From a candidate division WOR-3 bacterium (lineage in GTDB: Bacteria > Hydrothermota > Hydrothermia > LBFQ01 > DSFT01), in the NCBI GenBank assembly GCA_965649115.1, contig CBFGJN010000064.1, positions 1 to 10,050 of the forward strand: 10,050 bases of DNA. Direction: 5' to 3'. The position numbers were made by a program. This document shows, one piece after another, positions 1-3,000 of this stretch. How positions within the stretch are numbered: the first letter of the stretch is position 1; the number at the start of each line of letters is the position of its first letter.

Positions 1-3000
1 GAATTATATATATGAGAAAGCGAATGATTTACTAAATAGTGGGACAAACAAAGTAATATGGATATTAACCAAGCCAAGGATTATTTTAATAGCCCAGAAG
101 GGGAAATCTTGGGAGATTAAAAAGTGGAATGATGATGTAGAAGTTATGGAGAATATAACTTTTAATTTAGATAAGCTTTTAAGGGAGGAGATATGAAAGT
201 TTTAGAAAATAAAAAATTACTAAAAGAGCTAATTTATGAAGAAGTTAATGGAAAACCAATTTATTACAAGAATTATAAGCTCGTTATTAAAGGTAAAAAA
301 ACTCTGGAGGAGGTTAAAATGAGTTCTCCATTACAATCTGAAATTATTGTCTTACTAATAAACTTTTTATCTTCAAGACTTGATAAGAGTAAGTACAAAA
401 TCCTTGCTCATGAAATAGGTGTAAAAACAAATAGTGGTAGAAGAGCGATTGACATTGCTATTTTTGAATATAAAAAAGTAAAACCATATTTAGGAAAGAG
501 TAAAATTATACCTTTTGTTCCAAAAATTGCTATTGAAGTTGACACAAAGGTGGAAGGCAATGTCATTAACTATGTAAACGAAAAAACAAAGGATTTACTA
601 ACTAGTGGAGCAGAAAAAGTTATATGGATATTTACTAAAACAAAAATTATTTTAATAGCAACCCATCAAGGTTCAGAAATTAAAAGTTTTAAGGATAATA
701 TAAGTATCATAGAAGGGATAACGCTTAATTTAGATAAGCTTTTAAGGGAGGAGTTATGAAAAGTGTTTTAAAAGAAAATAAAAAATTACTTAAAGAATTA
801 GTTTATGAAGAAGTTAATGGAAAACCAATTTATTACAAGAATTATAAACTTGTTATTAAAGGTAAAAAAACTCTGGAGGAGGTTATGGCAAGTTCTATTT
901 TTCAATCTAGAATAATTACTGCTCTAATAAACTTATTAAGTTCAAAATTAAATCCAATAGGATATTTAGTTTTAGGTTCTGAATTGGGCGTTAGAACAAA
1001 GAAAGGTTTTAGAAGTATAGATATTGCTATATATAGAAAAGATGATATAAAAGCATATAAAAATTTATTAAAATACGTTCCAATTACACCGTTAATCTGT
1101 ATTGAAGTTGATACAAAGGCTGAATTAAAAAACAAAGATATTATGGACTACATTTCTGAAAAAATTAATGATTTATTTCAAAAAGAAACAAACAAAGTAA
1201 TATGGATATTAACCAAGCCAAGGATTATTTTAATAGCCCAGAAGGGGAAATCTTGGGAGATTAAAAAGTGGGATGATGATATAGAAGTTATGGAGAATAT
1301 AACTTTTAATTTAGATAAGCTTTTAAGGGAGGAGTTATGAAAGTTTTAGAAAATAAAAAATTGCTAAAAGAGCTAATTTATGAAGAAGTAAATGGAAAAC
1401 CAATTTATTACAAGAATTATAAGCTCGTTATTAAAGGTAAAAAAACTCTGGAGGAGGTTATGGCAAGTTCAGGATTTCACTCTTTAATTTTGGAAATAAT
1501 AAGAGATTACTTAAAGAAAATGCTAAGAAGAGCTTATATTATTCTGACAGGTGAGGTAGGAGTTAGAACAAATAGTGGTTATAGAGCATTGGATATAGGT
1601 ATTTTTAACTTTGAGAAAATAAAACCTTATCTAAATAAAGACAAAATTTTACCAATCTGTCCTATAATAGCAATTGAGATTGACACGAAGGCGCAATTAA
1701 AGGAAGGTGAATATATGAATTATATATATGAGAAAGCGAATGATTTACTAAATAGTGGGACAAACAAAGTAATATGGATATTAACCAAGCCAAGGATTAT
1801 TTTAATAGCCCAGAAGGGGAAATCTTGGGAGATTAAAAAGTGGGATGATGATATAGAAGTTATGGAGAATATAACTTTTAATTTAGATAAGCTTTTAAGG
1901 GAGGTTGGAATATGATAACGTTGAGTAATTTGAAACCAAAAAAAGGAGCAAATTTTGAGAAAGTTAGAGTTGGAAGAGGAATAGGCTCTGGACTTGGAAA
2001 AACAGCTGGAAGAGGTCAAAAAGGTCAAAAATCAAGAGAAGGGGATCCAAAAGAACCTTGGTTTGAAGGTGGTCAAACTCCTATATATAGAAGACTGCCA
2101 AAGAGAGGTTTTAAAAATCCATTTTCCATTGAATATCAGGAAGTTAATCTTGATAAAATAGATAAAAAATTTAAAGAGGGTGAAATTGTAAATAAACAAA
2201 CACTTTTTGAAAGAAAATTAATAGAAAATACTAAAAAACCAGTTAAAATTCTTGCAAGAGGAAACCTTACAAAGTCCCTTATATTTGAAGGAATAGAAAA
2301 ATTTTCAAAAAAAGCTATTGAAATTATAAAAGCATCAAATTCAAAAATAAAGGAGTAAAAACTATGATAAATTCAATAGCAAACATTTTCAAAATTGATG
2401 AATTAAGACAAAAAATTCTCTTTACACTTTTGATAATCCTTGTTTTTAGGATAGGAACTCACATTCCATTACCTGGTATAAACGCATCTGCCCTTGCACA
2501 ATTTTTTGAGACACTTAGAGGAACTGTTTTTGGGATTTATGATATTTTCGTAGGAGGAGCTTTGTCAAGAGCTTCCATTTTTGCTCTTGGAATAATGCCC
2601 TATATCTCTGCATCAATTATAATGCAATTATTATCAAATACACTTCCAAATTTACAGAGACTTCAAAGGGAAGGAGAACATGGGAGAAGAGTTATAAATC
2701 AATATTCAAGATTACTAACAGTTCTAATAGCAAGTGTTCAGGCATTTGGTATAACTTCATTTCTTCAAACACTTAAAACTCAAACGGGAATACCTATTGT
2801 CCCAAATCCTGGTTTATTATTTACAATAACAACTGTAATAACACTTGTTGGTGGTGCTATTTTTGTAATGTGGCTTGGGGAACAAATTGATGAGAGAGGA
2901 ATAGGGAGAGGTTCATCAGTTCTTATTTTAATAGGTTCTCTTGACACATTTCCCGCTGAAATAAGAGCGGTTAGTAATTTATTACTTTCTGGAACAATAA

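Follow-up and report, generated by a model that had tools for sequence, protein, structure and literature searches.

Tandem Uma2-family genes at the start/stop junction of rpmD and rplO in a candidate division WOR-3 bacterium

The Uma2 family (COG4636, DUF820, PF05685) comprises predicted nucleases of the PD-(D/E)xK fold; in the text available from three sources, nuclease activity is a prediction only (PMC551604, PMC3424549, PMC2701414). The accessible part of one survey proposes that COG4636 members are selfish elements, attributes more than 2% of the genes of some cyanobacteria to them, and describes their insertion as 'virtually random' and tandem copies as rare (PMC551604). In the available part of another source, the family consists mostly of 'cassettes of paralogous genes' (PMC2701414). 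As far as the text of the Uma2/COG4636/DUF820/PF05685 and homing-endonuclease literature was available, no description of Uma2 genes inside ribosomal-protein operons was found. In this study, we analyzed a 10,050-nt stretch of the genome of a hot-spring bacterium of candidate division WOR-3 (contig CBFGJN010000064.1, hereafter C64; the whole stretch is called the window). Compared with the accessible part of the survey (PMC551604), the genes found here are frame-exact in core operons, form arrays of 2 to at least 6, and have matching empty sites. The window copies resemble known members in length (~190 aa), single-domain architecture, conserved acidic and lysine residues, and occurrence in runs of paralogs, but they constitute a divergent sub-clade below the Pfam cut-off.

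For the free-standing seg and mob endonucleases of T4-like phages, a homing model has been invoked. The genes described here share with them the position of nuclease ORFs between conserved genes and the presence or absence of these ORFs among close relatives. They differ in belonging to another fold family, in lying on a bacterial chromosome rather than in a phage, and in forming multi-copy arrays with shuffled modules, which is not a homing feature. According to the accessible part of a 2026 paper (PMC13096335), segmental amplification is driven by SegB; we see in this a parallel to tandem arrays linked to nucleases. Integron cassettes are also promoter-less, ORF-sized tandem units expressed from an upstream promoter. 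Because consecutive Uma2 units share 4 nt, no space is left for attC sites; no integrase lies nearby, the region upstream of the array being occupied by rpmD and a divergent gene; and, unlike integron cassettes, all array units belong to one family. A type II toxin-antitoxin system ('solo toxin' in the available text of PMC2701414) was considered and rejected, since no small antitoxin is adjacent and the neighbors are Uma2 or host core genes. A pair of A-type copies precedes a biotin carboxylase gene in an Aquifex MAG and is linked to it by -4 overlaps, and aq_1194 lies inside the Aquifex PFOR cluster in the accessible text of PMC10052474. The Aquifex genes are of the same sub-clade (48% identity) and likewise belong to a compact genome of a thermophile, where a core metabolic gene is overlapped by 4 nt; their neighbors differ in not being ribosomal genes.

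The components of the array in the window are listed in Table 1. On balance, we consider it probable that at least six divergent Uma2 (COG4636, predicted PD-(D/E)xK fold) genes were inserted exactly at the rpmD/rplO start/stop junction and that they are promoter-less selfish, possibly defence-useful, cassettes reshuffled by recombination. Within positions 2-1915, one partial ORF and three full ORFs of ~190 aa are present. The tail of the final copy is unlike the tails of the internal copies. The downstream host gene has an rplO homolog in all 31 genomes searched. In this genus, the rpmD-rplO unit is separated from the rest of the spc cluster, with the divergent gene upstream of rpmD. Rfam gave no match and a tRNA scan no gene across the window, and no RNA run containing the stretch is listed among 18 runs. 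A recent foreign origin of the array was rejected, as its GC content (26-31%) equals that of the remaining window.

Table 1. Coordinates of the Uma2 array and adjacent host genes in the window
Feature	Position	Strand	Remarks
Partial Uma2 copy, A-type, C-terminal 64 codons	2..196	+	Cut by contig start; A2 profile, 99.6 bits
Uma2-family gene A5, 188 aa	193..759	+	A2 profile, 244 bits; ATGA overlap at both ends; no Pfam match of its own
Uma2-family gene A6, 194 aa	756..1340	+	Pfam Uma2, 18.3 bits, below the cut-off of 27; copy used for modelling
Uma2-family gene A7, 192 aa, final copy	1337..1915	+	Stop overlaps rplO start
rplO (ribosomal protein L15)	1912..2358	+	Pfam Ribosomal_L27A, E 5.6e-11; host gene 3' of the array
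secY	2364..3680	+	Pfam SecY, E 5.7e-101; shares unit with rplO
Junction module: Shine-Dalgarno-like AAGGGAGGAG in the 3' codons of one copy, then ATGA start/stop overlap	181..196	+	Read from the sequence
Further junction modules of the same kind	744-759, 1325-1340, 1897-1915	+	Read from the sequence
Homogenised 5' cassette segment, repeat family D2	204..376	+	Copies at 773-945 and 1348-1520

All junctions in the window consist of an ATGA overlap with AAGGGAGG(AG) 6-8 nt upstream, the Shine-Dalgarno sequence of each next ORF being carried by the preceding Uma2 ORF. On reverse-complemented contig C84, the first copy after rpmD starts at GTG within ATGTGA. The first-pass annotation had claimed that in-operon copies overlap their neighbors by 4 bp and supply the next Shine-Dalgarno sequence, and this was seen at 18 of the 18 junctions observed, including all nine with host genes. 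It had also pointed out that such overlaps are common in the genome; by a crude gene call, they occur in 302 of 1114 same-strand neighbor pairs (27%), and because of this background and because array-internal junctions are copies of one another, 18/18 overstates independence. The same background would suit a history of ordinary paralogs, in which one chance insertion per site was followed by plain tandem duplication, nothing was mobile, and the overlaps simply reflect a compact genome; tandem duplication is already described for the family in the available text of PMC551604 and PMC2701414. The coding strand of the array contains no terminator-like site, and shuffles contain more promoter-like sites than the array does. 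The sequence suggests that the array is co-transcribed and translationally coupled. Lacking promoter, terminator, and intergenic DNA of their own, the cassettes would be transcribed from the rpmD promoter, and the Shine-Dalgarno sequence in the last codons and the ATGA would pass the ribosome on to each following ORF and, at the end of the array, to rplO.

Membership in the Uma2 family had been assigned from Pfam hits. This is correct for the copies at rplT, rplM, trmD, kdsA, and C11, which pass the cut-off (28-84 bits; 112 bits), and incorrect for the window copies: the gathering score of 27 bits is reached by none of the four ORFs, only one of which matches at all. A whole-genome Pfam scan lists one of the seven array ORFs, and none of the seven copies matches NCBIfam. 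The family was recognized by profile-profile comparison: an alignment of the 29-sequence sub-clade with eight canonical copies of the genome under study (G000) by hhalign gave a probability of 99.2% and an E value of 2.4e-19 over 158 columns. E76, D89, E117, K121, and K136 are invariant in the 29 homologs, and three of them (D89, E117, and K136) are aligned to the D, E, and K that canonical copies carry. Together, the profile-profile match and the invariant residues support placing these sub-threshold copies in the Uma2 family. Of the 29 homologs, 17 have a Pfam Uma2 match at E<=0.01, and sources label sub-clade homologs 'Uma2 family endonuclease'. Among the Atlas matches listed, 25 of 30 fall in clusters carrying PF05685, some of them named Uma2 (score 0.97 in the rows displayed); the clusters nearest to A6 are so named (score 0.97). 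The AlphaFold model of A6 (pLDDT 92.6) has an alpha-beta-beta-beta-alpha-beta order, as expected for a PD-(D/E)xK core. A sequence-profile search of the PDB returned one match, at chance level (E 0.54); the accessible text of PMC3424549 names 1wdj and 3ot2 as solved structures of Uma2 proteins. At E<=1e-30, the 1.84 billion representatives include 190 clusters of the sub-clade; in a species-genome collection, a search for loci related to three window copies gave 369 pattern matches, none confirmed. The family HMMs find 17 ORFs in the genome, reproducing the earlier count. Two of these copies, T1 and M1, have internal deletions of ~17-20 residues relative to their paralogs and may be inactive.

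The claim of at least six genes between rpmD and rplO depends on two contigs. Reverse-complemented C84 carries rpmD, two full Uma2 copies, and one cut copy, and its end equals the start of C64 over exactly 81 nt, as previously reported. C64:1-127 recurs exactly at C64:1717-1843, so the join lies inside a 127-nt repeat and is not unique. The number 'at least six' stands nevertheless, since six distinct central bodies are present, and the partial copy of C64 probably represents the gene whose cut copy ends C84. Short Logan contigs from four hot-spring runs cover the array, none of them spanning it, and copy number is not derivable from them. In a 99-contig draft whose array is split over two contigs joined within a repeat, mis-joining of repeats to ribosomal genes during assembly or binning of a metagenome-assembled genome might be suspected. 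This explanation has a negligible probability. It is already contradicted by L108, an independent 53-kb metagenome contig of a near relative, which contains rpmD, four Uma2 genes, rplO, and secY without interruption and has -4 overlaps at all array junctions. Furthermore, genome G004 and contig L109 have the same array flanks, the junctions are in frame and overlap host genes, and the GC content of the array is that of the remaining window.

Further Uma2 copies had been reported before rplT, rplM, trmD, and a kdsA-type gene, and Pfam confirms each of them. Three Uma2 genes precede rplT and pheS, and the other orders are rpoA-rplQ-trx-Uma2-rplM-rpsI, nuoA-nuoB-Uma2-Uma2-trmD, and tmk-ctpA-Uma2-Uma2-kdsA. 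Frame-exact 4-nt overlaps that supply the Shine-Dalgarno sequence occur with rpmD, rplO, rplT, trx/rplM, nuoB/trmD, and ctpA/kdsA. As regards the description of the copies as embedded in operons, the rplT array is at the head of its unit, not within it. As stated before, the two-gene cassettes at trmD (C39) and kdsA (C35) align over 1050 nt with 86% identity; the similarity begins 14 nt ahead of the start codon and ends 3 nt past the stop. In T/M-type cassettes, the final 32 nt agree with the native rplT leader at 23-24 of 32 positions; 20,000 random draws of 32-mers gave a mean of 9.9 and a maximum of 22. By this match, the T/M-type cassette ends in a copy of the rplT leader, and that leader has reached the rplM site.

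Purifying selection acts on the copies: in four ortholog pairs, dN/dS is 0.06-0.22 in every segment. Within the genome, the ends of the copies are homogenised and their centers are hypervariable, i.e., they evolve in concert: nucleotide identity among the copies of G000 is 93-98% in the 5' segment vs. ~50% in the centers. Between genomes, the 5' segment carries synonymous differences (pS 0.52-0.57), for which reason a conserved RNA or DNA element there was rejected. The ortholog of A5 in L108 is m1 (82% identical) and that of A7 is m4 (87% identical), likewise the final copy. Copy order is permuted between the two arrays, and copy number is at least six vs. four. Between G013 and G015, central and C-terminal modules are re-assorted, and in hot-spring run X5, one contig skips one unit, with the joint (282->852) in the homogenised 5' segment.

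Hypervariable centers and purifying selection between orthologs could also indicate a battery of restriction-like anti-phage nucleases, in which the variable centers are specificities and the position in operons is incidental or serves constitutive expression. The canonical copies strongly match the PADLOC candidate PDC-S03 (C11 copy, 151 bits; T1, 113 bits), and for two of three window copies the match is weak, with no more than 16-19 bits. Moreover, arrays lie beside a cas gene in G012 and beside GmrSD in an Aquifex MAG. We regard this explanation as rather unlikely. The arrays contain no methyltransferase or other self-protection partner, and in the available text of PMC551604, the family was likewise found to have no association with methyltransferases. 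PDC-S03 is a candidate only, and no paper naming it was found; core operons are not the usual place of defence genes; and two congeners live without any copy. Purifying selection and the PDC-S03 matches of the canonical copies are equally compatible with a useful gene and with a selfish one.

The sites were said to be empty in congeners, and they are. rpmD abuts rplO in G001, G003, G005, and G006, with an ATGA overlap in G001, G005, and G006. Two congeners and the sister genus, in which rpmD abuts rplO, have no Uma2 gene anywhere, and neither profile gave a match in G001, G003, or G005. trx abuts rplM in G001, G003, G004, and G005. The ctpA/kdsA site, now compared, is newly shown to be empty in three congeners (G001, G003, and G004). 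G000 and G002 carry the stand-alone copy at different loci, and three more Uma2 copies are peculiar to G002. The empty junctions, the congeners without any Uma2 gene, the ORF-exact cassette at two loci, and the shifted stand-alone copy together show that cassettes were gained or moved several times in one genus. The distribution fits as few as one rplO insertion in the ancestor of G000, G002, and G004, and the remaining sites fit a handful of insertions in the ancestor of G000 and G002, followed by vertical inheritance; ongoing mobility is thus not implied. The earlier term 'mobile ORF-sized cassettes' is therefore supported as history, by gain or movement and by ORF-exact borders, and any mechanism of movement is conjectural. 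That the phyletic pattern requires few events would again agree with ordinary paralogs, an explanation that we consider improbable in view of at least five in-operon sites and several G000/G002 differences in a genus otherwise without the family, the ORF-exact borders, the transfer of the rplT leader to the rplM site, and the permuted copy order. In agreement with the earlier account, the arrays of order-level relatives (4-8 copies) lie in ordinary intergenic DNA, 50-420 nt away from their neighbors; hence, insertion into start/stop junctions does not characterize the family.

Identical sites that are filled or empty among congeners, with predicted nuclease genes between conserved genes, are also what true homing would produce. 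The nuclease would cut the uninterrupted junction or a neighboring conserved gene, and repair from the filled allele would copy the cassette; ribosomal-protein genes would be favored because their sequences are conserved targets. Three of the five in-operon loci are directly upstream of a ribosomal-protein gene (rplO, rplT, and rplM), the stand-alone copy lies ~530 nt upstream of rplU, and a homing-like spread of the family is proposed in the accessible part of PMC551604. Several observations make homing doubtful, and we give it a low probability. There is no sign of co-conversion: dS between G000 and L108 is 0.44-0.65 for rpmD, rplO, and secY, not below that of the cassettes. In five genomes, all differences within the first 21 nt of rplO are synonymous third-position changes, and none of these bases distinguishes filled from empty genomes. 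The distribution is compatible with vertical descent, the arrays of order-level relatives are not beside conserved genes, and homing predicts one copy per site, leaving arrays of 4-8 different copies unexplained.

We return to the preferred explanation, promoter-less cassettes reshuffled by recombination. These would be selfish nuclease units that might serve in defence as well. Given how compact the genome is, they would persist only where the downstream essential gene stays expressed, and lodged cassettes may be hard to lose because imprecise deletion would uncouple that gene. Homologous recombination between the homogenised 5' and 3' ends would expand, contract, and rearrange the arrays, and the hypervariable central module (long helix and first two core strands, ~residues 47-112) would be kept different between copies. 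This module most likely sets DNA-target or partner specificity. New sites could be reached by recombination via short homologies at ribosome-binding/start regions, and breaks made by the nucleases themselves may stimulate the colonizing recombination.

A further proposal, which we advance only tentatively and think rather unlikely, is that Uma2 cassettes are a distinct kind of mobile element, 'coupling parasites'. Such elements would be promoter-less and ORF-sized, would have no transposase or integrase beyond their own nuclease, and would enter the start/stop junctions or leaders of essential, highly expressed genes; they would exploit the translational coupling of the host and could not be lost without harm to the downstream gene. 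Their arrays would re-assort the hypervariable specificity module, flanked by conserved ends, into new nuclease specificities. The selfish proposal for Uma2/COG4636, a large family, was made twenty years ago. Earlier surveys had no precisely matched filled and empty sites among close relatives, no ORF-exact borders, no host leader captured by a cassette, and no arrays differing in order and content between near relatives. With these features, the lineage makes the selfish-element idea directly testable and gives the clearest filled-vs.-empty-site picture so far of a family long suspected to be selfish. Ribosomal-protein units can be colonized too, provided that translational coupling is preserved.

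Bases 1-1915 of the window, which is contig C64 of a 1.85-Mb draft genome (99 contigs, about 28% GC), carry one partial and three complete Uma2-family ORFs (the complete ones 188-194 aa) on the plus strand. rplO and secY follow (table), and then a YGGT gene, folP, and a glycosyltransferase gene. Each boundary of the array, from 193 through 1915, is an ATGA start/stop overlap, with AAGGGAGG(AG) located 6-8 nt 5' of the junction, within the final codons of the preceding ORF. Among named sequences, the window's SecY is closest to those of MAGs from candidate division WOR-3 and Hydrothermota, and the sequencing runs holding the window sequence are hot-spring metagenomes.

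The upstream part of the array lies on contig C84, whose reverse complement carries rpmD (61 aa), two complete Uma2 copies, and a third that the contig end truncates. The first of these starts at the GTG inside ATGTGA, overlapping the rpmD stop. The first-pass annotation had joined C84 and C64 by an exact 81-bp overlap. The two ends do have exactly 81 nt in common; however, C64:1-127 is found again, exactly, at C64:1717-1843, so the overlap falls within a repeat and leaves the uniqueness of the join unproven. The count of at least six copies between rpmD and rplO is upheld by six different central bodies. An RplO scan of metagenome contigs yielded L108, a 53-kb contig from a near relative (identity to G000, the source genome: RpmD 100%, RplO 95%, SecY 98%), which holds rpmD, four Uma2 genes, rplO, and secY on a single contig with -4 overlaps at all junctions. 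On a further contig, L109 (RplO 86%), a Uma2 copy overlaps rplO, and in G004 (same genus) four full copies and a truncated one come after rpmD, reaching the contig end. The rpmD-Uma2 array-rplO arrangement is real. In this genus rpmD heads a separate unit and lacks rpsE before it; the upstream neighbour is divergent and in G004 encodes a TPR protein (L031 (C84) 1629-2250; L004; L093; L108 7238-7512). The spc cluster is thus already fragmented.

Features of the window and of other in-operon Uma2 sites in the source genome (G000)
Feature	Position	Strand	Basis or remark
Partial Uma2 ORF	2-196	+	ORF call
Uma2 ORF	193-759	+	ORF call
Uma2 ORF	756-1340	+	ORF call
Uma2 ORF	1337-1915	+	ORF call
rplO	1912-2358	+	directly after array
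secY	2364-3680	+	after rplO
MITE-like repeat	5714-5777, 7828-7990, 8037-8163, 8252-8378, 9943-10050	both orientations	intergenic
208-aa protein, weak DUF2795 match	8413-9039	-	1-nt overlap, downstream of KaiC-like ATPase
KaiC-like ATPase	9039-9908	-	window
3 Uma2 copies, then rplT, pheS	G000		Pfam; 4-nt overlaps
rpoA-rplQ-trx-Uma2-rplM-rpsI-rpsB	G000		Pfam; 4-nt overlaps
nuoA-nuoB-Uma2-Uma2-trmD	G000		Pfam; 4-nt overlaps
tmk-ctpA-Uma2-Uma2-kdsA	G000		Pfam; 4-nt overlaps

The MITE-like repeat (about 110-130 nt) combines a G6-CTTCG-C6 hairpin with a AAGCCGAAGGCTT hairpin. A 127-nt copy of it has at least 500 BLAST matches, on at least 90 of the 99 contigs; among the matches listed, at least 278 reach 90 nt and at least 84 are found no more than 150 nt from a contig end. 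The repeat had no Rfam match.

Assignment to Uma2 had been based on Pfam and family-HMM hits. For the window copies the Pfam evidence is sub-threshold: the model matched one of the four window ORFs, at best with 18.3 bits (cut-off 27), and a whole-genome Pfam scan recovered one of the seven array ORFs. Membership itself was borne out by profile-profile comparison and invariant residues. A profile of 29 sub-clade homologs matched a profile of eight canonical G000 copies with a probability of 99.2% (E 2.4e-19), and E76, D89, E117, K121, and K136 are invariant among the 29, of which 17 match the Pfam model at E<=0.01. Public-data homologs carry the name "Uma2 family endonuclease", as do two of the top three Atlas clusters, and 25 of 30 Atlas hits belong to clusters with PF05685 on part of their members. 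The sub-clade comprises 190 clusters at E<=1e-30 among 1.84 billion representatives. The AlphaFold model of one window copy (pLDDT 92.6) has a predicted nuclease-like element order.

The arrangements at rplT, rplM, trmD, and kdsA were confirmed by Pfam, and family profiles again matched 17 ORFs in G000. Three subfamilies are present: A (rpmD/rplO), T/M (rplT, rplM), and D/K (trmD, kdsA); the reported 86% identity of the D/K cassettes over 1050 nt (-14 to +3) holds. 4-nt overlaps are common in G000 (302 of 1114 same-strand pairs in a crude gene call); they occur at 18/18 Uma2 junctions overall and at 9/9 with host genes. T1 (L032 3063-3536) and M1 (L033 2837-3307), copies at rplT and rplM, have about 17-20 core-strand residues fewer than their paralogs, so their activity may be lost. 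C34 carries a Uma2 fragment, and a canonical copy stands alone about 530 nt 5' of rplU. The stand-alone copy occupies a different locus in G002 (same genus), and the matching G000 site has a short repeat element.

rpmD directly adjoins rplO in two genomes of the same genus (G001, G003) and two of the sister genus (G005, G006), by an ATGA overlap in three of these four genomes. As previously stated, the rplM and rplT sites are empty in G001, G003, G004, and G005: trx adjoins rplM without Uma2, and no Uma2 precedes rplT. The comparison is here extended to ctpA, which adjoins kdsA without Uma2 in G001, G003, and G004. Neither profile found Uma2 anywhere in G001, G003, or G005, and a genome search of G004 found the rpmD-rplO array only. 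The G002 rpmD-rplO site, formerly listed as unresolved, is filled, the 47 nt before rplO encoding a Uma2 tail. Elsewhere in G002, the contigs are broken ahead of both rplT and rplM, with Uma2 fragments there; one copy separates nuoB from trmD; and at a contig end ctpA overlaps a Uma2 gene. Since the sister genus is empty, gain is the parsimonious direction. In G004 and G003 (L044, L045), a 31-nt trx-rplM spacer matches the M1 cassette and rplM start in its first 8-10 nt (ATGAAAAC) and resembles the 3' part of M1 at its end; it could be the footprint of a lost cassette or homology used in insertion.

The ancestral junctions at kdsA, rplM, and rplO were overlapping start/stop pairs before insertion. 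The T/M cassette ends in 32 nt of which 23-24 positions match the native rplT leader (random 32-mers: mean 9.9, maximum 22 in 20,000 draws). This leader (TTTAAAATTTTCAAAC...AAAGGAGG) is kept in Uma2-free relatives (L039-L042), and its copy encodes the final ~10 residues of the T- and M-type proteins (L032 3018-3062, G000:C4). The same end is present at rplM; a cassette thus took up the rplT leader and brought it to another site, which points to short-homology recombination rather than a dedicated site-specific enzyme. trmD neighbours clpC in G004; in G000 it follows nuoB and two Uma2 copies, and clpC adjoins rpsT. trmD has thus moved (G000:C39 5159-6183; G000:C2 about 54080; L049), placing the cassette at a synteny break.

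The four L108 copies are, in order, orthologs of G000 A5, A3, A1, and A7 (82-87% identity), so copy order is permuted; the last alone keeps its position, and two G000 types are absent from L108. dN/dS of the ortholog pairs is 0.06-0.22 across N-terminal, central, and C-terminal parts, indicating that the array proteins are maintained (dS of flanking rpmD, rplO, and secY, 0.44-0.65). Within G000, DNA identity among array ORFs is 93-98% in the 5' part and about 50% in the centre; between genomes, more than half of the synonymous sites in the 5' part differ. The same pattern was observed in G004, G013, and G015; between copies of the last two, central and C-terminal modules are re-assorted. The ends thus undergo concerted evolution around a hypervariable centre. 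A contig from one of the hot-spring runs has position 282 fused to 852, skipping one unit inside the homogenised segment, and the body of that unit has zero depth in the run.

COG4636 was proposed as selfish elements with homing-like proliferation, its insertions being found "virtually random" and its tandem copies rare (PMC551604); Uma2 was described as a likely solo toxin, mostly in cassettes of paralogs (PMC2701414), and as a predicted endonuclease (structures 1wdj, 3ot2; PMC3424549). Canonical G000 copies match the PADLOC defence candidate PDC-S03. The portions consulted of the literature on Uma2/COG4636 and homing endonucleases describe neither matched empty sites, nor mosaic arrays, nor frame-exact insertion into ribosomal-protein units. 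PMC10052474 places aq_1194 inside the Aquifex PFOR cluster. Loci L103 2512-5611 and L104 come from Aquifex MAGs. One MAG has OsmC, two A-type copies, and biotin carboxylase with -4 overlaps, and so shows the same operon habit as G000. A second has three Uma2 copies around OsmC, then a GmrSD gene.

The observation of Uma2 cassettes in core operons is upheld and taken further, and their reading as coupled, mobile units is supported; movement mechanism, enzyme activity, and host cost or benefit are matters that we infer. Order-level relatives carry arrays of 4-8 copies in ordinary intergenic settings. In G015:C41 (L088), a DUF5694 gene splits a run of eight tandem A-type copies; elsewhere the neighbour of an array is a cas gene (G012:C10) or a subtilase. 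Given these intergenic arrays, the operon habit is local, and our reading is that a survival filter acts in a compact genome.
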